Source: Escherichia coli
GTDB lineage: Bacteria > Pseudomonadota > Gammaproteobacteria > Enterobacterales > Enterobacteriaceae
DNA: 64,000 nt
NCBI RefSeq assembly: GCF_050320075.1
Contig: NZ_CP190021.1
Reading direction: 5' to 3' (one strand)
The notes beneath the pieces are model-generated. The model had not been told where the DNA came from, did not search any database, and was given only the letters and a program-made list of their open reading frames with translations. Both the position numbers and the translations under genes were made by a program. Of this stretch, positions 18,078 to 43,747 are shown piece by piece. Numbering within the stretch: position 1 is the stretch's first letter; every line of letters starts with the position of its first letter.

Positions 18078-18431
18078 TATTCTAATAACTGAATCCGCAC
18101 ACAGTCAAATGTCATTGTTCTGACTAAAAAACGCTCAATTCTCTGAGGGTATGGCTGTATGCCTGCTGTGGAGTGCTGTGTCCAGCTTATCCACAGCATT
18201 TTGTGCACGGTTCTGTGGACAAAATACCTGGTTACCCAGGCCGTGCCGGCACGTTAACCGGGCTGCATCCGATGCAAGTGTGTCGCTGTCGCCGGCCTCC
18301 TCACCCGGTCACGTTTCGTCGTTCCTCCTCCACGCGCTGCGGCTTCGGGGCCGCACCTGCATTCGTATGCGGTCGCCCGGTTACAGGTGCGGCACGGCCT
18401 GATGGAGGCCGCATGTGAGAGGAGAATTCCC

Positions 18432-19358
18432 ATGCCAAACTGGTGCAGTAACCGTATGCATTTTTCTGGTGAACCGGCACAGATTGCTGAGATTAAACGA
18501 CTGGCCAGTGGTGCCGTCACACCGTTTTATCGCCGCGCCACAAATGAAGGTATTCAGCTGTTTCTGGCCGGAAGTGCCGGACTTCTGCAGACCACTGAAG
18601 ATGTGTGGTTTGAACCGTGCCCCGGACTGACGGCTGCCGGACGTGGCGTTGTATCGCCGGAGAATATCGCGTTCACCCGCTGGCTGACACACCTGCAGAA
18701 CGGTGTACTGCTGGATGAGCAAAACTGCCTGATGCTGCATGAACTCTGGCTGCAGAGCGGTACTGGCCAGCGTCGCTGGGAAGGATTACCGGACGATGTC
18801 AGGGATACCATCACCGCGCTTTTCACCGCAAAAAGAGGTGACTGGTGTGGCTTCTGGAGTAACGAGGATGTATCGGTGTGGTGGAACCGTCTGTGTGACA
18901 ACGTACTGCCGGAAAAAACCATGCCGTTTGACCTGCTGACGGTTCTGCCCACCCGCCTTGATGTTGAAGTGAATGGCTTTAACGGTGGTGTTCTGAACGG
19001 TGTTCCTTCTGCATATCACTGGTATACCGAACAGTATGGCGTGAAGTGGCCTTGTGGGTATGACCTGAATATCAGCAGTCAGGGAGACAACTTCATTCAG
19101 GTTGATTTCGACACGCCGTGGTGTCAGCCGGAAAGCGACGTTATTGCAGAATTAAGCCGCCGTTTCAGCTGCACGCTGGAGCACTGGTATGCCGAACAGG
19201 GCTGTGATTTCTGTGGCTGGCAGTTGTATGAGCGCGGAGAGCTCGTTGATGTGCTGTGGGGGGAGCTGGAATGGTCTTCCCCGACAGATGACGATGAGCT
19301 GCCGGAAGTCACCGGACCTGCGTGGATAGTCGACAAGGTGGCGCATTATGGCGGATGA
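18432..19358 (+). CDS. Conserved leading-region protein of unknown function (cysteine/tryptophan-rich)
   Basis: ATG at 18432 with GGAGAA RBS (MPNWCSNRMHFSGEP...); track ORF starts earlier at 18387. Confidence 0.65.
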   Translation: MPNWCSNRMHFSGEPAQIAEIKRLASGAVTPFYRRATNEGIQLFLAGSAGLLQTTEDVWFEPCPGLTAAGRGVVSPENIAFTRWLTHLQNGVLLDEQNCLMLHELWLQSGTGQRRWEGLPDDVRDTITALFTAKRGDWCGFWSNEDVSVWWNRLCDNVLPEKTMPFDLLTVLPTRLDVEVNGFNGGVLNGVPSAYHWYTEQYGVKWPCGYDLNISSQGDNFIQVDFDTPWCQPESDVIAELSRRFSCTLEHWYAEQGCDFCGWQLYERGELVDVLWGELEWSSPTDDDELPEVTGPAWIVDKVAHYGG

Positions 19359-19742
19359 AGTATGACGGAGACGGGCGGGCTACCGCCCGTTTCTTTTCCG
19401 GTAAAGGATGTCGCCGTGCTCCTCTTTTTACTGCGCCGGCTGACGCGGCGCGGCATAAACGCTGCCTGTGGTCAGTGTCCCGCGTCCGGCCGGGCACGGG
19501 ACGGGCGCTTTTACCGCTCCCGGCTGGCGTCGGTGACAGTGTACGCCAGCCTGTCGCCCTTTTCTGATGAACGCCCTTCAAGCCGCTTTCGCGGCATAAC
19601 CTTGCCGTCAGAAAGACGACGGCTGCGGTATTCCACGGTCGGCCTGACCCGTTACCGGACGCGGTGAACAGCCCACAGGCAGCGGGGAACGGGCACCACA
19701 GGGGTGCCCTCCCGGTGCCCTCTGTAAGAGAAGGAGTTTGGT

Positions 19743-21918: not shown

Positions 21919-21974
21919 TGACACTGGCGGGGTAAATCCCCGCCTTTTTCCTGCCGGTCCCCGGACAGAGCACA

Positions 21975-22315
21975 AAGGACGTCGCCGCCGGCTCCGCTTT
22001 ACCCGGCCATGCAGGGCATGGCCTTGTGGTTTTTCAGTTATGTGGCCGCCGTGTCGTGTGCGGGCTGTGCCGTGCCTCCATCTTAGCCGGGCTGGCAGGG
22101 ATGCAAGGGTACGCTTCGCCGCTGCGGTCACCCGGTCCCTCCTTCCCGTCTGCCGTGATTTTCCGGTCGTTCACCCGCTCAGATTTCGCGGTCTCACCCT
22201 CCAACTCCCGCCAGCCGTGTGCGTCAGGCTGCGGCTTCCCTTGCGCCCTGTGCATCCCCACCTTATCGCCCGGCTTTTATGGAGGCACGGCACCGCCCGG
22301 TGTCGCGGAATATGT
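21975..22315. repeat. Leading-region repeat family A, copy 1 (~340 bp), candidate ssDNA promoter (Frpo/ssi-like)
   Basis: Near-identical to 28922-29265; ends immediately upstream of the KlcA-like gene. Confidence 0.65.
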
Positions 22316-22335
22316 GAACAACGGAGGAAAACATC

Positions 22336-22761
22336 ATGCAATATGCGAAACCTGTCACTCTGAACGTTGAAGAGTGCGACCGTCTGTCTTTTCTGCCTTA
22401 CCTGTTTGGCCAGGATTTTCTGTATGCCGAAGCGTCTGTATACGCGCTGGCGAAACAAATGATGCCGGAATATGAAGGCGGATTCTGGCACTTCATCCGA
22501 CTGCCGGACGGTGGCGGTTACATGATGCCGGATGGCGACCGTTTTCACATGGTGAACGGTGCAAACTGGTTTGACCGTACCGTGAGTGCTGATGCCGCAG
22601 GCATCATCCTTACCTCCCTTGTGATTAACCGCCAGTTGTGGCTGTACCACGACAGCGGGGATGCAGGACTGACCCAGCTTTACCGGATGCGCGATGCGCA
22701 GTTGTGGCGTCACATCGAATTTCACCCTGAATGCAACGCGATTTACGCAGCACTGGACTGA
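22336..22761 (+). CDS. klcA: KlcA/ArdB-family anti-restriction protein
   Basis: 141-aa ORF with pattern LSFLPYLFG...[19 protein letters not shown]...[10 protein letters not shown] resembling RK2 KlcA from memory. Confidence 0.75.
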
Positions 22762-22807
22762 TTAACGGACGGGGCGGCAATGCCGCCCCTGTAAAGGAGA
22801 CGAGAAC

Positions 22808-23230
22808 ATGTACTGTACTGTTAAAGAAATTATCCGCGATGTACTGGATACAGACGTGCCGGACAGTGAATGCGTTTTTGCCGTGGTGCTGACCCGTGGG
22901 GATGTGCGCCACATAGCCCAGGACTGGAGTCTGACAGACGATGAGCTGGAAACCGTCATGCAGCGGCTGGACGATGCCTTTGAATATGGTGCGGATGTCA
23001 GCGTTGTTCACGGCGTTGTTCGTGAACTGATGGAAGAAAAGCGCGCCAGCCGTCAGGTGACAGTCCCGGCGGTGATGCTGGAAAAAGTGTTGGCGCTGGC
23101 AGGCAGTGAAATGAAGCGCCTGTATGCCGTCGGGAGTGAGAACGGGGGCGACGGTGATGCGTTCGTCAGGGAAGAACGCGAAGCAATGGACGTTGTGTTA
23201 CAGGCGCTGGACGGGGAGCACATGTCATGA
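22808..23230 (+). CDS. Hypothetical protein, paralog of the 20662-21096 gene
   Basis: 140-aa ORF; shared RBS and RQVTVPA motif. Confidence 0.65.
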   Translation: MYCTVKEIIRDVLDTDVPDSECVFAVVLTRGDVRHIAQDWSLTDDELETVMQRLDDAFEYGADVSVVHGVVRELMEEKRASRQVTVPAVMLEKVLALAGSEMKRLYAVGSENGGDGDAFVREEREAMDVVLQALDGEHMS

Positions 23231-23418
23231 ATATCAGCACAGAAACCCGCGAAATTCTGCGCAATTACAAAGCCGTGATTAATGCGCGGCGTCGTGAAAT
23301 GGGGCAGAAACCGCTCACCACTGCGCAGATTGTTGATGAAATCTGCGATTTTGTGGCGAATCAGCAGGCGGTTTTCCTCGGTGGTCACTATATCCTTCAG
23401 GGCAGCAGAAACAGGTGA
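23227..23418 (+). CDS. Hypothetical small protein, translationally coupled (TCATGA overlap)
   Basis: 63-aa ORF. Confidence 0.4.
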   Translation: MNISTETREILRNYKAVINARRREMGQKPLTTAQIVDEICDFVANQQAVFLGGHYILQGSRNR

Positions 23419-23620
23419 TACAGGGCAGGCGGTGGAGGCCGCCTGTCAGCCCGCGCGAAAACCCCTGGCAGGCTGACGCCTGCCGGAAATGCGGGGTGCA
23501 GCGCCTGCGGCGCTGCCGGCCCGGCTTTCCGGTCAGAAGGTAGTGTATGGCTGTATGCAGGGAACAGGTGTGATATTCCGTGACACTGTCACCGTTTCTG
23601 GCTGTCTTTTATTGCGCCCA

Positions 23621-24125
23621 CTTCGGCTCCCGGCTGCCTGGCGGCATCCGGTCGTCAGGCCCGACTCCGACAGGCAGCTGCTGGCGCACCCGCCAGTCTC
23701 CGCCGAACCCGCTGGCGCGGTTTCGGGCTGCCGCTACGGTCCGATGCGTGAAAACCCGGCTTGCAGCGACCGTTCCGGTCGCGCCGCCCCTGTCGCGCCG
23801 TGACCTGCGCTCCCTGCACACCTGACGGTGTGTGAGGAAACTGCGCCTGATGGCGCAGCAGTCTTCCCTCCTGCCACCACCCCTGCGGCCTGTTTCCCGC
23901 TGTGGACTTTCCGGGGGGCAGACGTAACCCCCTCCCGTTCCATCTGTCCAGGGTGAGATGCACCGGCCACAAAATTTTTAGCCATGAACCCGGCTAAAAA
24001 TTTTGCGTCCGCCCCCGGACAGCTGTCCCGTGAGGCGGTAAACGGGCCCCCATCGGAAAGGTCCACTGCGGGGAGAAACCCCTGTGAAGTGGACGGCAGG
24101 AGGAGCTTTCGCTCCTCTGAAGGGG
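23621..24125. repeat. Leading-region repeat family B, copy 1 (~505 bp), candidate ssDNA promoter upstream of ssb
   Basis: Highly similar to 29964-30465 and partly to 33013-33345; contains a 14-bp perfect hairpin CAAAATTTTTAGCC-N8-GGCTAAAAATTTTG. Confidence 0.65.
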
Positions 24126-24186
24126 CACATGAACGTCCCGTCGCCGGTATCCGGTTTATCTCACATCTTTCAGTCAGGAGGTTCTT

Positions 24187-24714
24187 ATGAGTGCACGTGG
24201 TATCAACAAGGTCATCCTCGTCGGGCGTCTGGGCAATGATCCGGAAGTCCGTTACATCCCCAACGGGGGCGCAGTGGCAAACCTGCAGGTGGCCACATCA
24301 GAAAGCTGGCGTGACAAACAGACGGGGGAGATGCGGGAGCAGACGGAATGGCACCGCGTGGTGCTGTTCGGCAAGCTCGCGGAAGTGGCAGGTGAATATC
24401 TGCGCAAGGGTGCGCAGGTCTACATCGAAGGTCAGCTTCGCACCCGTAGCTGGGAAGATAACGGTATCACCCGTTACGTCACTGAAATTCTTGTTAAGAC
24501 CACGGGCACCGTGCAGATGCTGGGACGTGCACCACAGCAGAACGCTCAGGCGCAACCGAAGCCTCAGCAGAATGGGCAGCCACAGAGTGCTGACGCGACG
24601 AAAAAAGGTGGCGCGAAAACGAAAGGCCGTGGACGTAAGGCCGCGCAGCCAGAGCCTCAGCCGCAACCGCCGGAGGGGGAGGATTACGGGTTTTCAGACG
24701 ATATCCCGTTCTGA
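24187..24714 (+). CDS. ssb: Single-stranded DNA-binding protein
   Basis: 175-aa [36 protein letters not shown]... with Q/P-rich linker and acidic DDIPF tail. Confidence 0.95.
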
Positions 24715-24765
24715 CTGGCCTGACTGTGATAACCGCCCCGCCCTGCGCGGGGCATCACCGGAGAG

Positions 24766-25005
24766 ATGAGGATGAGCGAATATTTCAGAATACTTCAGGG
24801 ACTGCCGGACGGCTCCTTTACCCGCGAACAGGCGGAAGCCGTTGCCGCACAGTACCGGAACGTCTTTATCGAGGATGATCAGGGAACGCATTTTCGCCTG
24901 GTTGTCCGTCAGGATGGCACGTTGATCTGGCGCTCCTGGAATTTTGAGGACTGTGCCGGGTACTGGATGAACCAGTACATCAGGGATTTCGGGATTCTTA
25001 AGTAA
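24766..25005 (+). CDS. Hypothetical small protein
   Basis: 79-aa ORF between ssb and the ParB-like gene. Confidence 0.5.
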
Positions 25006-25057
25006 GAGAGGTGCCGGACGCGCGAACGTCCGGCAGGACATAAGCAATTATAAGGGG

Positions 25058-27022
25058 ATGATTATGCCTGTAACGAAGTGTGAACCAGAAACCACCCGCA
25101 AAGCAAGCCGTAAATCTGTAAAAACGCAGGAAACTGTCCTGTCTGCCCTGCTGGCGCAGACGGAGGAAGTGAGCGTGCCGCTGGCCTCGCTGATTAAATC
25201 ACCGCTGAATGTGCGCACGGTGCCGTATTCTGCGGAGTCCGTCAGCGAACTGGCGGAGTCCATTAAGGGCGTCGGACTGCTGCAGAATCTGGTCGTGCAT
25301 ACCCTGCCTGGTGACCGTTACGGTGTCGCCGCAGGTGGTCGCCGACTGGCTGCACTCAACATGCTGGCAGAGCGTGGCATCATTCCGGCTGACTGGCCTG
25401 TACGCGTGAAGGTTATTCCGCAGGAGCTGGCGACGGCTGCATCAATGACTGAAAACGGTCATCGTCGGGATATGCACCCTGCCGAACAGATTGCCGGATT
25501 CCGTGCGATGGCGCAGGAAGGCAAAACGCCTGCACAAATCGGTGATTTGCTGGGCTATTCGCCCCGCCACGTTCAGCGAATGCTGAAACTGGCAGACCTT
25601 GCGCCTGTCATCCTCGATGCGCTGGCAGAAGACCGCATCACCACAGAGCACTGTCAGGCGCTGGCGCTGGAGAACGACACCGCGCGTCAGGTGCAGGTGT
25701 TTGAAGCCGCCTGCCAGTCGGGATGGGGCGGTAAACCGGAAGTACAGACCATTCGTCGTCTGGTGACCGAAAGTGAAGTGGCGGTGGCAGGTAACAGTAA
25801 ATTCCGCTTCGTGGGGGCTGATGCTTTCTCACCTGACGAACTGCGTACTGATTTGTTCAGCGATGACGGGGACGGTTATGTCGACCGCGTGGCGCTCGAT
25901 GCTGCCCTGCTGGAAAAACTCCAGGCTGTCGCTGAACACCTTCGGGAAGCCGAAGGCTGGGAATGGTGCGCCGGACGCATGGAGCCTGTCGGTGAGTGCC
26001 GTGAGGATGCCGGAACATACCGCTGTCTGCCGGAGCCGGAAGCGGTGCTGACGGAGGCAGAAGAAGAACGCCTGAACGAACTGATGACGCGTTACGACGC
26101 GCTGGAAAACCAGTGTGAGGAATCCGACCTGCTGGAAGCAGAAATGAAGCTGATGCGCTGCATGGCGAAGGTCAGGGCGTGGACGCCGGAGATGCGTGCC
26201 GGAAGTGGCGTGGTGGTGTCCTGGCGTTATGGAAACGTATGTGTCCAGCGTGGTGTGCAGTTGCGCAGTGAAGATGACGCGACTGATGACGCTGACCGCA
26301 CGGAACAGGTGCAGGAGAAAGCGTCAGTGGAGGAAATCAGTCTGCCGTTGCTGACGAAAATGTCTTCCGAACGCACGCTGGCAGTCCAGGCAGCACTGAT
26401 GCAGCAACCGGACAAATCTCTGGCACTGCTGGCATGGACGCTCTGCCTGAATGTGTTTGACAGCGGAGCGTACAGTAAACCAGCACAAATCAGCCTGGAA
26501 TGTAAACATTATTCGCTGACCAGCGATGCGCCGTCAGGGAAGGAAGGTGCCGCATTCCTGGCGCTGATGGCAGAAAAAGCCCGTCTTGCGGCCCTGTTAC
26601 CGGAGGGATGGTCACGGGACATGACGACGTTCCTGTCACTCAGTCAGGAGGTGCTGTTATCCCTGCTCAGTTTCTGCACCGCATGCAGCCTTAACGGTGT
26701 CCAGACCCGCGAGTGTGGTCGCACGTCACGCAGTCCGCTTGACTCACTGGAGAGCGCCATCGGTTTTCACATGCGCGACTGGTGGCAGCCGACGAAAGCA
26801 AACTTCTTCGGACACCTGAAAAAGCCGCAGATTATCGCAGCCCTGAATGATGCCGGACTGTCCGGTGCCGCACGGGACGCAGAGAAGATGAAGAAAGGCG
26901 ATGCCGCTGAACATGCAGAGTTCCATATGAAAGACAACCGCTGGGTGCCTGGCTGGATGTGTTCACCACGTCCACAGACGGATGCCACTGAACGCGCCGA
27001 TAACCTGGCTGATGCCGCCTGA
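25058..27022 (+). CDS. ParB/Srx-like N-terminal domain protein of the leading region
   Basis: 654-aa ORF; N-terminal region has a ParB-box-like GGRRLAA motif and an HTH-like segment. Confidence 0.75.
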   Translation: MIMPVTKCEPETTRKASRKSVKTQETVLSALLAQTEEVSVPLASLIKSPLNVRTVPYSAESVSELAESIKGVGLLQNLVVHTLPGDRYGVAAGGRRLAALNMLAERGIIPADWPVRVKVIPQELATAASMTENGHRRDMHPAEQIAGFRAMAQEGKTPAQIGDLLGYSPRHVQRMLKLADLAPVILDALAEDRITTEHCQALALENDTARQVQVFEAACQSGWGGKPEVQTIRRLVTESEVAVAGNSKFRFVGADAFSPDELRTDLFSDDGDGYVDRVALDAALLEKLQAVAEHLREAEGWEWCAGRMEPVGECREDAGTYRCLPEPEAVLTEAEEERLNELMTRYDALENQCEESDLLEAEMKLMRCMAKVRAWTPEMRAGSGVVVSWRYGNVCVQRGVQLRSEDDATDDADRTEQVQEKASVEEISLPLLTKMSSERTLAVQAALMQQPDKSLALLAWTLCLNVFDSGAYSKPAQISLECKHYSLTSDAPSGKEGAAFLALMAEKARLAALLPEGWSRDMTTFLSLSQEVLLSLLSFCTACSLNGVQTRECGRTSRSPLDSLESAIGFHMRDWWQPTKANFFGHLKKPQIIAALNDAGLSGAARDAEKMKKGDAAEHAEFHMKDNRWVPGWMCSPRPQTDATERADNLADAA

Positions 27023-27073
27023 TGAACAACCACACCGCCCCGCCGGAGACGGGGCGGCAGAGGGAGAAATACG

Positions 27074-27511
27074 ATGATGAATACCGAACTGACACTGAAT
27101 GCCCTGCAGTCCATGAATGCCCAGGAATATGAAGAAATCCGTGCTGCGGGAAGCGATATGCGCCGTAATCTCACTCACGAGGTGATGCGTAAAGTGGACG
27201 CACCGGCTAACTGGATGATGAACGGAGAGTATGGCAGCGAGTTCGGGGGCTTTTTCCCCGTCCAGGTTCGTTTCACGCCAGCCCACGAACGTTTCCACCT
27301 GGCATTATGTTCGCCGGGAGACGTCTCTCAGCTCTGGATGCTGGTTCTGGTGAATGGTGGTGGACAGCCTTTCGCCGTCGTTCAGGTGCAACATATCTTC
27401 ACGCCTGCCGCGATCAGTCACACGCTGGCGCTTGCCGCGACACTGGATGCGCAGGGATACAGTGTTAACGACATCATCCATATCCTGATGGCAGAAGGAG
27501 GTCAGGCATGA
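27074..27511 (+). CDS. psiB: Plasmid SOS inhibition protein PsiB
   Basis: 145-aa ORF recognised from memory; immediately followed by psiA. Confidence 0.9.
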
Positions 27512-28227
27512 GCGCACGTTCACGGGCACTGATCCCCCTCAGCGCAGAACAACAGGCCGCCATGCAGGCGGTGGCTGTCACAGAACAACGTCGTCGTCAG
27601 GGACGCACACTTTCAGCATGGCCTTATGCCACCGCTTTCTTTCGCTGCCTGAATGGCAGTCGCCGGATTTCGCTGACCGATCTCCGCTTTTTTGCCCCTG
27701 CGCTGACGAAGGAGGAATTTCATGGCAACCGTCTCCTGTGGCTGGCTGCCGTGGATAAACTGATTGAAAGTTTTGGGGAAGTCTGTGTTCTTCCCCTGCC
27801 ATCCGATGCGGGGCACCGTCTGTTCCCGTCCGTGCCTTTTCGTGAAGGTGAGCGTCGTCGTCAGAAAACCACGCTGACAGAGCAGAAATACAGCCGCCAG
27901 CGGGAACGTGAGGCAGAACGACGGGAACTGGAATACCAGACATGTTTTGCTCAGGCGCAGATTGACCTTGCGTTTCATACTCCCGCCACGGTCGGAAGCT
28001 GGTTGTCCCGCTGGTCTGGTGTTGTTGAGGAGCATGATCTGGAAACGATTTTCTGGGGGTGGTGCGGGCGTTTTCCATCACTGTCATCATTTGACCGGTT
28101 TTTCTGGCAGGAGGAACCACTCTGGCGGCTGATTTTTGAAGCCGGTGAGGCCGGTCGTGGTGCACCGGTACAGGTACGTGCACTTGAGCAGTGGATGATC
28201 CCGAACAAGCTGGAGAACGTAATATGA
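27508..28227 (+). CDS. psiA: Plasmid SOS inhibition protein PsiA
   Basis: 239-aa ORF overlapping the psiB stop (ATGA). Confidence 0.9.
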
Positions 28228-28820
28228 TGAAATCAGACGAAAAATACCAGGTTCCCGCGTGGATGCGACCTCTGTTGCCGTTGCTCTGCAACACCGGGGG
28301 GAACGATCCGGAAGAACTGCTGAATGATACAGAAACCACTGCCAGTGCGAATGTTGTCCGTTATGTACTGATAGTTGCTGTGCGGTCGCAGGTTGATCTG
28401 CTGCAGCTTCTGTACAGGAAAGGGCTGTTGCGCACAGAGATACCAGGTGGCTTTTCACCGGAAGAAGCGCAGGCACTCCTGGATAATCTGGTGCGCAGCC
28501 ATATCAGCAAGGCGCTGTCGGGCGAGCGAATGGCAGCCCGTGACAGAAATGCCGATCTGGCCTGGATTGGACAGCAACTGGTCGATGACGCCTGGTTTGT
28601 CCGTGCCACACTGGAAGCGCATGGGATGAGCGTCGGAAATGAGAGTCCCCCTGCTCCGCCGGAGACAATGCCGGACATACAGACACGGGAACTGGTGATG
28701 TTGATCAAGCGACTGGCATCATCGCTGAAAGCGGTGAAACCGGACAGTTGTGTGGTGCGTGAAGCGCAGGACTGGCTGCGCGACAGAAAACTTGTGGATA
28801 TCACAGATATTCTCCGGTGA
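28224..28820 (+). CDS. Hypothetical protein translationally coupled to psiA
   Basis: ATGATGA overlap with psiA stop; 198 aa from ATG 28224 (track ORF starts at 28191). Confidence 0.55.
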   Translation: MMKSDEKYQVPAWMRPLLPLLCNTGGNDPEELLNDTETTASANVVRYVLIVAVRSQVDLLQLLYRKGLLRTEIPGGFSPEEAQALLDNLVRSHISKALSGERMAARDRNADLAWIGQQLVDDAWFVRATLEAHGMSVGNESPPAPPETMPDIQTRELVMLIKRLASSLKAVKPDSCVVREAQDWLRDRKLVDITDILR

Positions 28821-28921
28821 ACCAGGCATGTATATTTTACGCAGGGACACGCCGATCATGATCGTTTCATATCAGGGGTGGTCTGGAGGTCATGCGGCGT
28901 GTCCTCTGCACTCGCCGGAAT

Positions 28922-29265
28922 AAGGAAGTCGCCGGCGGCTCCGCTTTTACCCGGCCATGCGGGGCATGGCCTTGTGGGGTTTCAGCTCTGTGGCCTCAGC
29001 GTCGTGTGCGGGCTGTGCCGTGCCTCCATCTTAGCCGGGCTGGCAGGGATGCAAGGGTACGCTTCGCCGCTGCGGTCACCCGGTCCCTCCTTCCCGTCTG
29101 CCGTGATTTTCCGGTCGTTCGTCCGCTCAGGTTTCGCGGCCTCACCCTGCAACTCCCGTCAGCCGTGTGCGTCAGGCTGCGGCTTCCCTTGCGCCCCTGC
29201 ATCCCCGCCTTATCGCCCGGCTTTTATGGAGGCACGGCACCGCCCGGTGTCGCAGAACATGTGAC
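28922..29265. repeat. Leading-region repeat family A, copy 2, candidate ssDNA promoter upstream of ardA
   Basis: Near-identical to 21975-22315. Confidence 0.65.
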
Positions 29266-29281
29266 TATGGAGGATTCGGGA

Positions 29282-29782
29282 ATGTCTGTTGTTGCACCTG
29301 CTGTATACGTTGGAACCTGGCACAAATACAACTGTGGAAGCATCGCCGGACGCTGGTTTGACCTGACCACGTTTGATGATGAGCGCGACTTTTTCGCCGC
29401 CTGCCGTGCTCTTCACCAGGATGAAGCCGATCCTGAACTGATGTTTCAGGATTATGAGGGATTCCCGGGGAATATGGCCTCTGAATGCCATATCAACTGG
29501 GCCTGGGTTGAAGGCTTCCGCCTGGCACGGGATGAAGGCTGCGAAGAGGCTTATCGTCTCTGGGTGGAGGATACCGGTGAGACGGATTTTGACACCTTCC
29601 GCGATGCCTGGTGGGGCGAGGCTGACAGTGAGGAGGCTTTTGCGGTTGAGTTCGCCAGTGATACCGGCCTGCTGGCTGACGTGCCGGAGACGGTGGCGCT
29701 CTATTTTGACTATGAGGCGTATGCGCGGGATTTATTCCTGGACTCCTTCACCTTTATTGACGGTCATGTGTTCCGTCGGTGA
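29282..29782 (+). CDS. ardA: Anti-restriction protein ArdA (type I R-M inhibitor)
   Basis: 166-aa acidic protein [38 protein letters not shown]...; the track ORF 28892-29782 extends upstream through the repeat. Confidence 0.95.
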
Positions 29783-29963
29783 TTTACTCCCCCGCTCCGG
29801 CGGGGGTATGGCCTGCCAGGCCGCCGGAAAACCCTGGCAGGCTTACGCCTGCCTGAAATGCAGGAGGGCCGCGCCTGCGGCGCTGCCCTTCCTGCCCGTC
29901 ATGGTGTGAGGCATTTTTCTGTTATGTCGTTTCTGTTGTTCTGATTTCCGGAGGCGGGGACAC

Positions 29964-30465
29964 CTTCGGCTCCCGGCTGCCTGGCGGCATCCGGTCGTCA
30001 GGCCCGACTCCGACAGGCAGCTGCTGGCGCACCCGCCAGTCTCCGCCGAACCCGCTGGCGCGGTTTCGGGCTGCCGCTACGGTCCGATGTCTGAAAAACC
30101 AGGCTTGCAGCGACCGTTCCGGTCGCGCCGCCCCTGTCGCGCCGGAAACGGCGCTCCCTGCACACCTGACGGTGTGTAAGGCCACTGCGCCTGATGGCGC
30201 AGTCAACCCTTCCGCCGCCACCCCTGCGGCCTGTTTCCCGCTGTGGACTTTCCGGGGGCTGGAGTAACCACATCCCGTTTCAGCAGTCCAGGGGAAGATA
30301 TACCGTCCACAAAATTTTTAGCCATAAACCCGGCAAAAAATTTTGCGTCCGCCCCCGGACAGCTGCCCCGTGACGTGGTGACGGACGCCCCATCGGAAAG
30401 GTCCACTGCGGGGAGAAACCCCGAAGAAGTGGACGGCAGAAGGGGCTTTCGCCCCTCCGGGGAGC
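29964..30465. repeat. Leading-region repeat family B, copy 2
   Basis: Aligned by eye to copy 1 over ~500 bp. Confidence 0.65.
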
Positions 30466-30510
30466 AACCGGTCGGCCCGGCGACCTGATTCAGCAGAAGG
30501 AGACGTTTTC

Positions 30511-30945
30511 ATGACAGTCAGCAGCACGATTTCCGTTTTTTGCCGCGACGGGGTGTTCCGTACCGTTTACTGCCACCTGCACGGGGAGCCGACCTGGAAC
30601 GGTCGCATCCTGCATACCCACTATGCCACCGGTCAGCAGGCCGAAGCCCTGGTTGAACACGGTGATATCCGTTGCCTCGGTCCCCGTTGCGACAAACCCG
30701 CCGGGCATACGCTTCAGAACCCGGTGGACGGTGTGACGGCTTATTACGGACGTGACAGTGGTTTCCGGATGGACAGTGAGGCGCGTGAGTACCGTTCTTT
30801 CAGGGAGGCTATTGCCACTGAAAGCACTGAAGAGGTGCGCTTCCATTATGTGTTCATCGACGGCTACTGGAAGGTGATGTACCGCACGCCGGAAGGCTGG
30901 AAGATGAAAGCGCTCGCGCTGGCACTGCGTCGCTGTCCGAAATGA
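30511..30945 (+). CDS. Hypothetical protein
   Basis: 144-aa ORF with GAAGGAG RBS directly after repeat B2. Confidence 0.6.
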   Translation: MTVSSTISVFCRDGVFRTVYCHLHGEPTWNGRILHTHYATGQQAEALVEHGDIRCLGPRCDKPAGHTLQNPVDGVTAYYGRDSGFRMDSEAREYRSFREAIATESTEEVRFHYVFIDGYWKVMYRTPEGWKMKALALALRRCPK

Positions 30946-31038
30946 AAAAAAGGCAGGGCGATAAACCCTGCCTCTCTCCGCCGGCGCTTCCCCGCCAGGA
31001 AGTCCGGCATCTCAATCACTATCTATGGAGATTATGCC

Positions 31039-31305
31039 ATGAGACCATCAATTATCTTCGCAACCGCCGAGTATGTAAAGCGTCTGCGTGAAGAGTGCCT
31101 GCGGGAGAATAAACCCCTGCACCGCCATACCCGCTTCAGACGTCAGGAGCTGGCACAGGATGAGATTAACCCGGACGTCCTGGCGATGAGCGGCCATATC
31201 GCCAGACGCTGCAGTGAGCAGAAGCGGGTGCGTATCCCCGCTATGAAAGTCAGCGAATGGGGCCACCTGCTCCGCGCGCTTGAAATTGAGCGGGTCTGCC
31301 ACTGA
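31039..31305 (+). CDS. Hypothetical small basic protein
   Basis: 88-aa ORF upstream of the Rpn-like gene. Confidence 0.45.
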   Translation: MRPSIIFATAEYVKRLREECLRENKPLHRHTRFRRQELAQDEINPDVLAMSGHIARRCSEQKRVRIPAMKVSEWGHLLRALEIERVCH

Positions 31306-31369
31306 TTAACCCTTGCCGTCTGCCTGTGCAGGCGGCAGGATACGTTCAGACATCTCACCAGGAGGAACC

Positions 31370-32308
31370 GTGAGTCAGAAGAAAACCACCACGACGCCCA
31401 CGCCGCATGATGCCGCGTTCCGGTCGTTCCTGGCGAATCCCGACGTCGCCAGAGATTTTCTGGAACTGCATCTTCCGGCGGAGTACCGGCAGTTGTGCGA
31501 CCTGTCCACGCTGAAGCTGGAACCCGCCACCTTTGTTGAGCCGGACCTGCATCAGTACGCCAGCGATATCCTCTGGAGTGTGAAAACCACCGGGGGTGAA
31601 GATGGCTATGTTTATACGCTCATCGAGCACCAGAGCACCGAAAATCTGTACATGCCTTTCCGCATGTTACGTTACAGTGTGGCGGCGATGCAGAGACATC
31701 TGGAGCAGCACAAAACGTTGCCACTGGTGATTCCTGTACTGTTCTATCATGGTGAGCGCAGCCCGTACCCGTACAGCATGAACTGGCTGGACTGTTTTGA
31801 GAATCCGGCACTTGCGGCTAAAATATACACAAAGCCGTTTCCGCTGGTTGATATCACTGTCGTTGATGACAATGAAATCATGAACCATCGCCGGATGGCC
31901 GCACTGACGCTGCTGATGAAGCATATCCGCCATCGTGACATGATGGAGCTGCTGGACAAACTCCCGCAGGTCATGGTGGAAATTTCAGACGAGCAGGTGC
32001 GTGTTCTGATTCATTACATCGTTAACGCAGGGGACTCTGTATCACCGGAATTTATGCGGGCGCTGGCTGAGCGTCTGCCGCAGCATGAGGATAAACTGAT
32101 GACTATCGCAGAACGTCTTGAGCAAAAAGGTCGCCAGGAGGGCAGGATGGAAGGACGCATGGAAGGACGCATGGAAGGACGCATGGAAGGAGCGCTTGAA
32201 AAAGCCCTGGCTATTGCGTGCCAGCTTCAGAAAATGGGGATGACGCCGGAGCAGATTAAGCAGGCTACCGGACTTTCCGATGACGAACTGAAGAAAATCA
32301 CTCACTGA
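31370..32308 (+). CDS. Rpn (YhgA-like) family PD-(D/E)xK nuclease/recombination-promoting protein
   Basis: GTG at 31370 with GGAGG RBS; N-terminal TPHDAAFRSFL, core YVYTLIEHQSTEN...FRMLRYSVAAMQRHL, recognised from memory as the YhgA/Rpn family. Confidence 0.75.
   Translation: MSQKKTTTTPTPHDAAFRSFLANPDVARDFLELHLPAEYRQLCDLSTLKLEPATFVEPDLHQYASDILWSVKTTGGEDGYVYTLIEHQSTENLYMPFRMLRYSVAAMQRHLEQHKTLPLVIPVLFYHGERSPYPYSMNWLDCFENPALAAKIYTKPFPLVDITVVDDNEIMNHRRMAALTLLMKHIRHRDMMELLDKLPQVMVEISDEQVRVLIHYIVNAGDSVSPEFMRALAERLPQHEDKLMTIAERLEQKGRQEGRMEGRMEGRMEGRMEGALEKALAIACQLQKMGMTPEQIKQATGLSDDELKKITH
32141..32188. repeat. In-frame 12-bp tandem repeat (GGACGCATGGAA x ~4) encoding (EGRM)n inside the Rpn-like gene
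   Basis: Read directly from sequence. Confidence 0.9.
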
Positions 32309-32314
32309 GTAAAC

Positions 32315-32345
32315 ATCACAGCCCGGCAAAATGCCGGGCTTTTTT
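32315..32345 (+). terminator. Rho-independent terminator after the Rpn-like gene
   Basis: AGCCCGGCA-AAA-TGCCGGGCT stem followed by TTTTTT. Confidence 0.7.
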
Positions 32346-32369
32346 GTCAGCAGGAGCAGAGCAAATAGC

Positions 32370-32528
32370 ATGACGATTGCAGAACGTCTTATTCAAAAAG
32401 GCGCACTTGAAGTGGCGCGGGAAATAGCCTGCCGGCTGCGGGATATGGGCTGGACGCCGGAACGGATTCAGGAGGCAACCGGACTTTCCGGTGAAGAACT
32501 GAAAAAGCTGTTTCCTGATGAGCAGTAG
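32370..32528 (+). CDS. Small protein duplicating the C-terminal module of the Rpn-like protein (RpnS-like candidate)
   Basis: 52-aa ORF MTIAERLIQKGALEVAREIACRLRDMGWTPERIQEATGLSGEELKKLF..., parallel to the Rpn tail MTIAERLEQKG...ALAIACQLQKMGMTPEQIKQATGLSDDELKK. Confidence 0.55.
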   Translation: MTIAERLIQKGALEVAREIACRLRDMGWTPERIQEATGLSGEELKKLFPDEQ

Positions 32529-32558
32529 CCTGGCATTCAGCCAGGCTGTGAATCACGC

Positions 32559-32810
32559 TCACACATCCTCTGCCGTTTCCCCCAGTTCATTTTCCAGTCG
32601 CCTGATGATATCTGCCTTACGCATCCCCTGCATGTGAGGCAGCAGGTCACGGACTGAAAGTGCCTGGGTGGTCCTCCAGACGGTGACGTCCACCTGTTCC
32701 GCATTTTCCCAGGCGTGCCATGTTCTCTGCGTCACGCCAAATTCTCTGGCCGCTTTTTCGCGTGACCAGAGCATGCTTTTTCGCCAGATTCGCAGTTCCC
32801 AGCCGGTCAT
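32559..32810 (-). CDS. Small HTH DNA-binding protein (Cro/Xre-like)
   Basis: 83-aa ORF with EFGVTQRTWHAWENA HTH-like segment; twin palindromes in its 5' region. Confidence 0.6.
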   Translation of the reverse strand: MTGWELRIWRKSMLWSREKAAREFGVTQRTWHAWENAEQVDVTVWRTTQALSVRDLLPHMQGMRKADIIRRLENELGETAEDV

Positions 32811-32824
32811 AAAACACCTTTGAA

Positions 32825-32912
32825 AAAGTGAAAAAACTTCACTTTATTTTATCATCACAATTGCCAAATCAGCGCGATAAATAAGTGTAAAAAAGTGAAG
32901 AAATTTCACTTT
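32825..32912. promoter_or_regulatory. Two palindromic operator candidates AAAGTGAA-N5-TTCACTTT (32825-32845 and 32892-32912)
   Basis: Identical 8-bp arms in both copies, 67 bp apart, read from sequence. Confidence 0.6.
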
Positions 32913-33012
32913 TTTTGCTTGTAAATGTCGTGCGGTTTTCTCTGTTTTCACCTGTGCGGGAGTGGTGTGCCAGTGACCACCACATGCCATTGTTGTGCCG
33001 TCGTTTTTCTTC

Positions 33013-33345
33013 AGTCGCGCCGTATGCGGCGCTCCCTGCACACCTTACGGTGTGTAAGGCCACTGCGCCTGATGGCGCAGCTGTCTCTGCCTGTCTGCCG
33101 CCGCACTGCGGCCTGTTCTCCGCAGACGGACTTTCCGGGGGTACATACATGACCACATCCCGTTTCAGTCGTCCAGGGGGGAGATGTACCAGCCACAAAA
33201 CTTTTTGCCGCAGGCGTCAAAAACTTTTGCGTCTGCCCCCGGACAACTGCCCCGTGACGTGGTGAGCGTCCCCCGTCGGAAAGGTCCACTGCGGGGAAAT
33301 CCCCGAAGACCCGGACGGCAGAAGGAGCTTCGCTCCTCCGGGAAA
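33013..33345. repeat. Leading-region repeat family B, copy 3 (partial, 3' two-thirds)
   Basis: Aligns to 23792-24125 of copy 1, including a degenerate version of the hairpin. Confidence 0.6.
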
Positions 33346-34718: not shown

Positions 34719-34846
34719 GCAGGGCTGCGCCCTGCCTCTGCCGTCTGCATAAGACTATGATGCACAAAAATAACAGGCTATAATGGCCTGAAAAACGGGA
34801 CAGGATGTGCAATTGTATAACCGCGCACGCGCGATTATACAATTGC
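34719..34846. other. oriT: oriT region: 8-bp perfect inverted repeat (GGCAGGGC-TGC-GCCCTGCC, 34719-34737) and 18-bp imperfect inverted repeat (34809-34846) upstream of nikA
   Basis: Inverted repeats read from sequence; position upstream of nikAB matches IncI1 oriT organisation. Confidence 0.65.
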
Positions 34847-42552: not shown

Positions 42553-42785
42553 GACAAAGTCTCCATTTCTGGAATTTAAATCAAACGGAAAGGTTAAAAA
42601 TTTATTTGCAGGCGATAAGAGCTAACCAGAGGAATTAGCCGTGTGATAAAAGGATTGTTGCAGATACGAAAGTCGTTAGAATAGCTGCGGGCGCTTGAGG
42701 CTGTATGCCGAAAGCGTTTTGTGGACGGTATACAGCAGAAAGCCCCTGGAGATTTTTTTATCAATCAACCAAGGGCTCTACTGTA

Positions 42786-42989
42786 ATGCCTAGACAACAT
42801 TATAGTAGCCCGATAACCGCCGTAAGGCAATGGAGGGGCTATGATGCCACAGCGAACGTTTTTAATGATGTTAATCGTCATCTGTGTGACGATTCTGTGT
42901 TTTGTCTGGATGGTGAGGGATTCGCTTTGCGGACTCCGGCTCCAGCAGGGAAACACAGTGCTTGTGGCAACGTTAGCCTACGAAGTTAA
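42786..42989 (+). CDS. pndC: Possible PndC (mok-like overlapping reading frame); start uncertain
   Basis: Frame overlapping pndA in the track ORF 42705-42989, as in hok/mok systems. Confidence 0.35.
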   Translation: MPRQHYSSPITAVRQWRGYDATANVFNDVNRHLCDDSVFCLDGEGFALRTPAPAGKHSACGNVSLRS

Positions 42990-42996: not shown

Positions 42997-43472
42997 CGGG
43001 CAACACGGCGGCAGGTTTTCTGCCGCCGCTTTGTTGCGAAGGCTGACCTCATTGCGCCCTTTCTTCTTCAATGAAGCGTATCCGGTATTGTTTCATTTCC
43101 CCTGAAGCCGATTAGCTCCAGCCGAATGCCTTTGCCATCCGGGGCCACGTTCTGCATTTCGCAGATACCACGTCGGGTCATGAGTGTGAAGGCTGTCATT
43201 GCCAGCATGGCTAACGCATTTTCCTCGCTTCCGCTGCGTTTCTCGAGAGCATCGGCAATTTATTCTATGCTCCCCACCTGAAAGCAAGAGTCGAATTCTT
43301 TACTCCACTTTTCTGACATCGGATTTTCTCTCTGTATTTATGGGTAGTTATCGAACTGAATGTGCCAGTTTTTTCAGGAGACGGCAAAGTTGAGATGGTT
43401 GGTTCTGATTCAAAGCATGAGTTTCCCCGGTGTGACGGGCATGTCGGGCGGATTTTGAGAAACAACAGATGT

Positions 43473-43503
43473 AAAAAAACCGACTGGTGAGGTCGGTTTT
43501 TTT
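43473..43503. terminator. Bidirectional rho-independent terminator candidate (A7-ACCGAC-loop-GTCGGT-T7)
   Basis: Read from sequence. Confidence 0.55.
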
Positions 43504-43526
43504 ACTGTTCCGTTACAGAGTGGGTG

Positions 43527-43747
43527 GCTCTGGTCGGAAAAGAACTGTCTATAACTGACCTGTAGATAGTACGTCTGGAATTATATTTCTGCAAGTACTG
43601 GATAAGTGTATACTCGGCATGTCAGCTCTGAGGCATGTTCTGTCCGGCATATTGTTCAGCGGGAAGAACAGGTTACAAGTCCTGGCCAAAACATCAGGTG
43701 GTGCTGGTTTTGGTGCTCTGGTCGGAGAAGAACTGTCTATAACTGAC
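43527..43747. repeat. Pair of 33-bp direct repeats (43527-43559 and 43715-43747, 32/33 identical)
   Basis: GCTCTGGTCGGARAAGAACTGTCTATAACTGAC read from sequence. Confidence 0.85.

Follow-up and report, generated by a model that had tools for sequence, protein, structure and literature searches.

Five long repeats in the leading region of an IncI1 conjugative plasmid are, with a probability of roughly 0.9, the single-stranded DNA (ssDNA) promoters of that region. The window (the whole stretch of 64,000 nucleotides from Escherichia coli that was analysed) represents this plasmid; it is 100% identical to pND11_107 and collinear with pESBL-EA11. The initial annotation had described two families of long repeats immediately before leading-region genes and had suggested that they act as promoters on the entering single strand. 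Repeat alignment recovered both families, with all copies oriented like the genes and directly upstream of a klcA-like gene, ardA, ssb, and the ORFs starting at 30511 and 33390. The promoter reading was borne out by the observed identity with published elements (Family B with ssi1-3 and Family A with class 2 of pESBL), and the strand assignment, the hairpin folds, the covariation, and the position of promoter-like hexamers established here agree with it. Both families have already been published; the proposal is therefore a correct rediscovery rather than new biology.

Repeat identities and the transferred strand

The oriT core was located at 34795-34846 on the minus strand as an inverted repeat (I11) followed by the motif ATCCTG, which we take to be the nick region from the known IncP/IncI1 oriT consensus. 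Because the minus strand carries this motif beside the oriT inverted repeat, and all downstream genes lie on the plus strand, the minus strand is both the transferred strand and the template strand for the genes; the position and strand of the core likewise place everything below approximately 34800 in the leading region. With the nick site set by this consensus, the Family B copies share the leading-region location and have the transferred strand as template for their downstream genes.

The two Family A copies (21975-22317 and 28922-29264, both read on the minus strand) are direct repeats that are 94-96% identical over approximately 340 nt, with one 1-nt indel. Their 3' ends lie 18-19 nt before the ATG at 22336 of a klcA/ardB-like antirestriction gene (22336-22761, plus strand) and the ATG at 29283 of the ardA antirestriction gene (29283-29783, plus strand), both annotated in RefSeq; the former is the first gene after copy 1, and the two genes are putatively driven by copies 1 and 2, respectively. 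In a four-way alignment, both copies were near identical across the hairpin to the hairpins upstream of klcA and ardA in pESBL. According to Wen et al. (NAR 2025, PMC12672017), pESBL has six ssDNA promoters in three classes, with start sites determined by 5'RACE and early induction of up to approximately 500-fold; the klcA and ardA hairpins are class 2, with mapped 5'RACE starts and strong early induction in transconjugants by RNA-seq. Class 2 is also named ssp2, was independently found in F as Frpo3 (bioRxiv 10.1101/2025.04.03.647016), and corresponds to the candidate Frpo'4 of Samuel et al. (Nature 2024), which shares 82% identity with Family A copy 1 and 84% with copy 2. Judged by sequence, Family A is the published class 2 (ssp2-type) ssDNA promoter, and its function in this plasmid would follow from near identity to the tested elements.

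Family B comprises two copies of approximately 500 nt (23621-24125 and 29964-30465) that are 85-98% identical, and a third at approximately 33012-33340 that has only the 3' 330 nt in common with them, at 79-82% identity; all three were read on the minus strand. A 330-nt core is thus present in every copy, and a 170-nt extension is found only in copies 1 (23621-23790) and 2 (29964-30134); this extension is not accounted for by the promoter model. Copy 1, which contains an inverted repeat (I7), precedes the plasmid ssb gene (24187-24714, plus strand, RefSeq annotation), the first gene of the ssb-psiB-psiA operon; its core (23790-24120) matches ColIb-P9 ssi3, an element of class 1 (Frpo type), at 99.1% (AJ238399:11381-11711), making ssi3 the putative driver of ssb. 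The core of copy 2 (30134-30459), upstream of the 30511 ORF, matches ssi2 at 99.7% (AJ238399:4353-4678), and copy 3, which consists of the core only and lies upstream of a DUF4942 gene (33390, plus strand), matches ssi1 at 98.8% (AJ238399:1459-1787). The ColIb-P9 matches span 326-331 nt, whereas ssiD of F is 74-75% identical to Family B over 80-116 nt. By these alignments, the Family B copies are ssi1, ssi2, and ssi3 of ColIb-P9 and not merely similar to them. These class 1 elements are known as ssi1-3 (Bates et al. 1999; Nasim et al. 2004) or ssp1, with Frpo1 and Frpo2 of F as relatives (Masai and Arai 1997; Couturier et al. 2023), and their single-strand-specific initiation and early transient expression have been published for ColIb-P9, F, and pESBL.

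Hairpin folding, covariation, and promoter-like motifs

Folded as ssDNA, the transferred strand of every copy forms a long hairpin well beyond shuffled controls (z -3.5 to -8), in line with what had been anticipated for single-strand promoters. Family A copy 1 folds at -87.8 kcal/mol (z -3.5) on the minus strand and at -78.2 kcal/mol on the plus strand, and copy 2 folds at -93 kcal/mol (z -5.0) on the minus strand; the transferred-strand hairpins extend over 22061-22299 and 29009-29246. The Family B copies give z scores of -7.9 to -8.1 (-8.1, -7.9, and -7.9 for copies 1 to 3), with none of 100 shuffles folding as well; likewise, no shuffle matched the minus-strand folds of Family A. In both families, folding of the minus strand is favoured over that of the plus strand by 10-13 kcal/mol.

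Pairing in the Family A hairpin was followed through 32 long-form homologues from Enterobacterales genomes, with slid pairing partners as the control. Paired cells amounted to 98%, compared with 31-45% for slid partners, and the covariation score was 0.247 against at most 0.075; compensated pairs numbered 13 of 49, compared with 1-7 in the controls, many of the compensatory changes tracing to one deep split (11 versus 21 sequences), so that independent events are fewer than the cell counts suggest. In 16 short-form homologues, 15 of 42 pairs were compensated. These results support the conclusion that the Family A transferred-strand hairpin is maintained by selection.

For Family B, the initial annotation had described a 14-bp hairpin in each copy with compensatory variation between copies, which holds in part. 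The perfect 14-bp A/T-rich hairpin (CAAAATTTTTAGCC-N8-GGCTAAAAATTTTG, 23970-24005) occurs in the first copy only; the second has one A.A mismatch, and the third has a C.C mismatch, a different loop, and one truly compensated pair (A-T to T-A). The 14-bp element forms the tip of a longer imperfect hairpin of approximately 200 nt, whose non-template arm carries a conserved -35-like hexamer (TGGACA, TGGACT, or TGGACG). The hexamer 17 nt past it (TTACGT, TTACTC, or TCATGT) is poorly conserved and lies inside an internal loop, and a search of class 1 for canonical -35/-10 elements, by eye and by consensus scan, found no convincing -10.

Three matches to a 39-nt promoter core, CTTG-N11-GCCCGGYTA-N3-T-N5-CACGGC, are present in the window, all on the minus strand, with zero expected by chance; two of these are in Family A (22069-22107 and 29017-29055), and the same core is present in the class 2 copy of plasmid F. 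The core presents TTGCAT-N15-TAAGAT on the non-template arm, and the boxes are conserved as TTG-N18-TA-N3-T in more than 60 homologues. Within the -10-like hexamer, positions 2-4 are unpaired in every sequence, and positions 1, 5, and 6 are paired, with position 5 covarying; these mismatches may aid strand opening. TTGCAT and TAAGAT are putative as the exact hexamers used, the spacer as read being 15 nt against a canonical 16-18 nt, and the hexamers really used may differ.

Proposed mechanism and competing explanations

In the proposed mechanism, the minus strand would enter the recipient 5' end first from the nick near 34800 and would be briefly single-stranded. Each repeat on the entering strand would fold back into a long imperfect hairpin with a stem that mimics duplex promoter DNA, the gene-distal arm serving as the non-template strand that bears the -35-like and -10-like hexamers. 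Host sigma-70 RNA polymerase would then bind the hairpin and transcribe out of its base into the adjacent gene, serving klcA/ardB, ardA, ssb-psiB-psiA, and the 30511 and 33390 operons. Synthesis of the complementary strand would remove the hairpin and switch the promoter off, which would confine the output of anti-restriction, SOS-inhibition, and ssDNA-binding proteins to a brief pulse. By analogy with the literature, in which deletion of these elements abolishes early expression and the downstream genes depend on them, the present elements would share the published start sites, early induction, and roadblock activity.

The strongest alternative is that the repeats are mainly priming sites (ssi signals) for complementary-strand synthesis, with the RNA serving as primer and not as messenger, an explanation considered rather unlikely. 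Frpo originally came to light as a single-strand initiation sequence whose transcripts are able to prime DNA synthesis (Masai and Arai 1997, cited in later work); additionally, in vivo evidence that ssp1 transcripts seed conversion has been reported. A priming role is nevertheless compatible with promoter function. The same papers show that the elements are needed for the downstream genes, and in every case a correctly oriented gene with a Shine-Dalgarno sequence starts 18-130 nt downstream of the copy. For class 2, moreover, what has been published is a stall of DNA synthesis and not priming: in F, ssp2 is reported to act as a roadblock that holds up complementary-strand synthesis until the UvrD helicase removes it, prolonging the single-stranded state (bioRxiv 10.64898/2026.01.09.698686).

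It is far less probable that the structures act as RNA, either as structured 5' leaders or as small RNAs on plus-sense transcripts, rather than as DNA hairpins. The plus strand of Family A copy 1 does fold beyond shuffled sequence (z -3.1), as any inverted repeat must, but the better minus-strand folds in both families point to selection for G.T pairs on the transferred strand. An Rfam scan of the whole window returned only sok and AgrB and had no match over the repeats. Furthermore, the RNA cannot contain both arms, since the published pESBL start sites fall inside the hairpin (PMC12672017).

The initial annotation had also held that ORFs predicted inside the repeats are not genes, and the coding analysis agrees. 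The RefSeq record of pND11_107 annotates no CDS inside the repeats, and the common reading frame of the two Family A copies is interrupted by their 1-nt indel. Pfam scans gave no match even at an E value of 10, whether in all six frames of Family A copy 1 or in the five (of six) frames scanned for Family B copy 1. In a few database records, the Family A match falls on annotated hypothetical ORFs, in one case a DUF1472 protein; the idea prompted by this record, that a Pfam family had been built on these repeats, was dropped because the frames scanned gave no Pfam match. Five neighbouring hypothetical proteins had no match in an NCBIfam scan. It is scarcely credible that the repeats lack a function of their own, having arisen passively by duplication or recombination between genes, or that they are small overlapping protein genes: recent gene conversion could explain the high identity between copies (94-98%), and the annotated hypothetical ORFs lend some support, but against this stand the compensatory changes that preserve pairing across genera, the constant orientation and placement before gene starts (18-130 nt upstream), the broken frame and the lack of a Pfam match, and the loss of early expression in published deletions.

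Related hairpins and comparison with known systems

Related hairpins were also seen beyond the repeats originally described. The third occurrence of the 39-nt core (18240-18278), an exact match, lies in a shorter minus-strand hairpin (18232-18406) located 26 nt upstream of the ATG at 18432 of a DUF1281 gene. This hairpin folds at -65 kcal/mol (z -3.5), is identical in pESBL and F, and aligns and covaries with 15 short-form homologues. Direct BLAST comparison of class 2 with this hairpin was not significant; homology between them is drawn from the common 39-nt motif, a candidate (Frpo*1) that matches both, and their joint architecture. A second, long transferred-strand hairpin of unrelated sequence (19460-19684, minus strand, inverted repeat I3) lies immediately upstream of an M.EcoGIX-type methylase gene (ATG 19743), within a CDS annotated as hypothetical (19362-19667); a terminator-like hairpin precedes it. 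The long hairpin folds at -100.8 kcal/mol (z -6.3), is 96% conserved in F and pESBL, and has homologues of approximately 80% identity in other Enterobacterales loci.

The hairpin at 19460-19684 is probably the published class 3 promoter, and that at 18232-18406 is either class 3 itself or an unreported seventh element. In all, the transferred strand of the leading region carries seven long promoter-like hairpins, one more than the number of ssDNA promoters (six) on record for pESBL, which is near identical. Two readings of this surplus follow, somewhat against the odds. Should class 3 be the hairpin at 19460-19684, the DUF1281 gene would be driven from 18232-18406 by a seventh, so far unreported ssDNA promoter; this hairpin would represent a short form of class 2, the two forms constituting one superfamily defined by the core and widespread in plasmids of Pantoea, Erwinia, Enterobacter, and Yersinia. 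Were the hairpin at 18232-18406 to be class 3, on the other hand, classes 2 and 3 would be homologous, contrary to the published statement.

Elements of this type would let the plasmid express anti-restriction, SOS-inhibition, and ssDNA-binding genes before the second strand is made, and such early expression is central to the establishment of resistance plasmids in new hosts. Experimental support for the principle and for exactly these sequences has already been published (1997-2026). The modest additions made here are evidence from covariation, across genera, for the class 2 hairpin, and a compact signature with which class 2-type promoters can be found in unannotated genomes; the hairpin upstream of the DUF1281 gene has this signature as well.

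Family B does not depart in any essential way from ssi1-3 of ColIb-P9, agreeing in the order relative to oriT, the downstream genes, and the long hairpin with an A/T-rich tip. The tip of ColIb-P9 ssi3 has a mismatch, whereas that of the ssi3 copy in this plasmid is a perfect 14 bp, and the ColIb-P9 elements are usually quoted as 330 nt, whereas in copies 1 and 2 the shared sequence continues for another 170 nt upstream. Family A shows no essential difference from class 2 of pESBL; it occupies the equivalent places before klcA/ardB and ardA and has the hairpin of approximately 240 nt as well. In F, ssp2 is present as a single copy, for which alone roadblock activity has been shown, whereas this plasmid has two copies. 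For class 3 (ssp3), assigned to the M.EcoGIX methylase operon by Wen et al. (2025), this plasmid offers two candidate hairpins upstream of that operon, both conserved in pESBL and F; that paper describes class 3 as unlike all other hairpins, yet the hairpin at 18232-18406 has the exact 39-nt core in common with class 2.

Repeats in the IncI1 leading region

The reading of the two repeat families as single-strand promoters, proposed in the initial annotation, is supported by their identity with published elements, the strand involved, the folds and the covariation. Several IncI1 plasmids, e.g., pND11_107 (NC_019043), carry the 11.5 kb surrounding the repeats at 100% identity; at least 5000 plasmid records match this region, which is collinear with pESBL-EA11 (NC_018659; pESBL). 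The RefSeq annotation of pND11_107 describes a typical IncI1 leading region with every gene on the plus strand, in the order DUF1281 gene, M.EcoGIX-type methylase, klcA/ardB-like antirestriction gene, ssb, parB-like gene, psiB, psiA, ardA, several hypothetical genes, DUF4942 gene, nikA and nikB. On the minus strand (34846-34795), an inverted repeat (AATTGTATAATCGCGCG / CGCGGTTATACAATT) is followed by GCACATCCTGTCCCG; ATCCTG beside an inverted repeat is the established nick-region signature of the IncP and IncI1 oriT. Because both lie on the minus strand, this is the nicked strand; it enters 5' end first, and coordinates below ~34800 therefore form the leading region. The transferred (minus) strand is the template for all plus-strand genes, the same arrangement that was stated for ColIb-P9 (Bates et al. 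1999). Past the transfer genes, Rfam detected sok antitoxin RNA (hok/sok) and AgrB antisense RNA (42689-42846 and 43471-43558), which are ordinary plasmid toxin-antitoxin loci.

Repeat comparison placed both families where they had been claimed, oriented like the genes, with a start codon shortly after the end of every copy. Family A is a direct repeat (21975-22317, A1, upstream of the klcA/ardB-like gene; 28922-29264, A2, upstream of ardA) with 94-96% identity and one 1-nt indel. Family B comprises two long copies with 85-98% identity (B1, 23621-24125, before ssb; B2, 29964-30465, before the 30511 ORF) and a third (B3, 33012-33340, before the DUF4942 gene) that has only the gene-proximal 330 nt in common. 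Distal to this core, B1 and B2 share an additional 170 nt (23621-23790 and 29964-30134; 98% identity) containing several small hairpins, and a 40-nt hairpin lies further upstream of both extensions (23456-23495 and 29825-29864); B3 carries neither. The 40-nt hairpin is kept near loci of class 2, the klcA/ardA promoter type, in ~20 other genomes. Just upstream of B3, an A/T-rich inverted repeat (32823-32914; 26-nt arms, 85% complementary) adjoins two divergently oriented small regulator genes, and a 109-nt direct repeat (32187-32506; 75% identity) surrounds the end of an Rpn-family gene. The ORFs predicted inside the repeats had been dismissed as genes, and this agrees with the absence of any annotated CDS within the repeats in the RefSeq record of pND11_107 and of any Pfam match to translations of Family A copy 1 (all six frames) and Family B copy 1 (five of six). 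A whole-window scan returned no Rfam family over the repeats.

Folding, covariation and promoter-like elements

Folding of the transferred strand as ssDNA, suggested as a check, gave long hairpins in all five copies, with none of the shuffled controls folding as well (A1, -87.8 kcal/mol, z -3.5; A2, -93 kcal/mol, z -5.0; B1, B2 and B3, z about -8). The plus strand folded 9.6 kcal/mol worse for A1 and 12-13 kcal/mol worse for the B copies, a difference that fits selection on the transferred strand. Family A forms a ~240-nt hairpin in which GTGCCGTGCCTCCAT..GCCGGGC is paired with GCCCGGC..ATGGAGGCACGGCAC.

A signature derived from the copies in the window together with three candidates of Samuel et al. 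(CTTG-N11-GCCCGGYTA-N3-T-N5-CACGGC) has exactly three matches in the window, all on the minus strand (22069-22107, 29017-29055 and 18240-18278), where none is expected by chance. Scanning one genome per species yielded 54 loci, nearly all in Enterobacterales (Pantoea, Erwinia, Enterobacter, Buttiauxella, Rahnella, Klebsiella, Yersinia pestis and others); the few in unrelated taxa resemble chance matches or plasmid contigs introduced by contamination. Assemblies labelled as Streptomyces, Oscillibacter, Alicyclobacillus, Raphidiopsis and Lachnospiraceae (hits L005, L006, L007, L015, L035, L038 and L039) contain class 2/3-type hairpins that match the E. coli plasmid copies exactly or nearly so, most likely through contamination with enterobacterial plasmids.

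The CACGGC block is paired with a distant partner in 49 distinct sequences, which come in two forms: the long form spans ~240 nt, as in Family A, and the short form ~175-190 nt, as in a hairpin at 18232-18406. Across the 32 long-form sequences, 98% of cells are paired (slid-partner controls, 31-45%) and the covariation score is 0.247 (controls, 0.075 or less); compensatory change affects 13 of 49 pairs (controls, 1-7), many of these changes tracing to a single deep division of the alignment (11 vs 21 sequences), which leaves fewer independent events than the counts suggest. Among 16 short-form sequences, including 18232-18406, 15 of 42 pairs are compensated, with up to four pair types per position. 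A base-by-base alignment of the copies for covariation had been suggested initially; across homologues, the pairing of the Family A hairpin is kept through compensated pairs.

Transcription can leave the hairpin towards the gene only if the gene-distal arm serves as the non-template strand. In Family A this arm reads CTTGCATCCCTGCCAGCCCGGCTAAGATGGAGGCACGGC, with a -35-like TTGCAT and a -10-like TAAGAT 15 nt apart. In every long-form sequence the -10-like hexamer has unpaired positions 2-4 flanked by paired positions 1, 5 and 6, and position 5 covaries with its partner; we infer that the folded hairpin may hold the -10 element partly open, which would favour single-strand initiation. The duplex non-template strand reads GTGCAT...TTTTAT, a poorer match than TTGCAT/TAAGAT.

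In the B copies (class 1, the ssi/Frpo type), an A/T-rich 14-bp hairpin is the tip of a ~200-nt hairpin. This short hairpin had been described in each B copy, with compensatory variation; it is perfect in B1 but has one mismatch in B2, and B3 combines one truly compensated pair with one mismatch. Samuel et al. (2024, PMC11541004) describe for promoters of this type an A+T-rich UP element that precedes the -35, which we take to be the A/T-rich tip. The class 1 non-template arm contains a conserved TGGACA-type hexamer and, 17 nt on, a poorly conserved hexamer in an internal loop, a candidate -10 only.

Additional hairpins upstream of early genes

Scanning the transferred strand between 12 and 36 kb without reference to homology recovered seven long hairpins: the five repeats, 18232-18406 and 19460-19684. 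The minus-strand hairpin at 18232-18406 contains an exact class 2 core (18240-18278), lies 26 nt upstream of the DUF1281 ATG (18432) and recurs without change in pESBL and F. It is of the short form, which occurs in Pantoea, Erwinia and Rahnella loci. In plasmid F (L058, 6811-7781), the DUF1281 gene is frameshifted into two overlapping ORFs, its upstream hairpin still being identical to the IncI1 copy.

The minus-strand hairpin at 19460-19684 (~225 nt, z -6.3) is unrelated in sequence and immediately precedes the M.EcoGIX-type methylase gene, between a terminator-like hairpin (19371-19398) and the start of that gene (19743). Conservation is 96% in F and pESBL, and ~80% homologues are present in loci of Erwinia, Enterobacter and Klebsiella (two of them in L051). 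Because this hairpin lies within it, the annotated hypothetical CDS 19362-19667 is probably spurious. Promoter hairpins are closely preceded by terminator-like plus-strand hairpins with T-rich tails, one following the DUF1281 stop (19371-19398), one following the 21918 stop (21926-21944) and one in the distal part of Family A (22005-22023), which suggests that the early operons are each shielded from read-through.

Correspondence with published single-strand promoters

Wen et al. (2025, PMC12672017) report six induced operons and six hairpin promoters in pESBL, with starts mapped by 5'RACE. They sort these into three classes: ssi1-3 and Frpo form class 1, the promoters of klcA and ardA class 2, and that of M.EcoGIX class 3, which is said to differ from all other hairpins. 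That count of six compares with seven hairpins here, and either 18232-18406 or 19460-19684 may be the published class 3. If 19460-19684 is class 3, then 18232-18406 would be a seventh ssDNA promoter so far unreported; if 18232-18406 is class 3, then class 3 is homologous to class 2 through their common core, against the published statement. In plasmid F, class 2 was independently named Frpo3 and, as ssp2, stalls complementary-strand synthesis until UvrD resolves it.

Reference sequences from Supplementary Table 2 of Samuel et al. 2024 (PMC11541004) were compared with the window by BLAST. B3 (33012-33340), B2 (30134-30459) and B1 (23790-24120) correspond to ssi1 (AJ238399:1459-1787; 98.8% identity), ssi2 (AJ238399:4353-4678; 99.7%) and ssi3 (AJ238399:11381-11711; 99.1%) of ColIb-P9, respectively, and the Family A copies match candidate Frpo'4 from an insect-gut metagenome (82-84% over ~340 nt). 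In alignment with the klcA and ardA hairpins of pESBL, the copies of Family A agree at nearly every base. Both families had therefore been published before, one from 1999 onwards and the other from 2024-2025. Families A and B are known sequence for sequence, their experimental support coming from near-identical plasmids.
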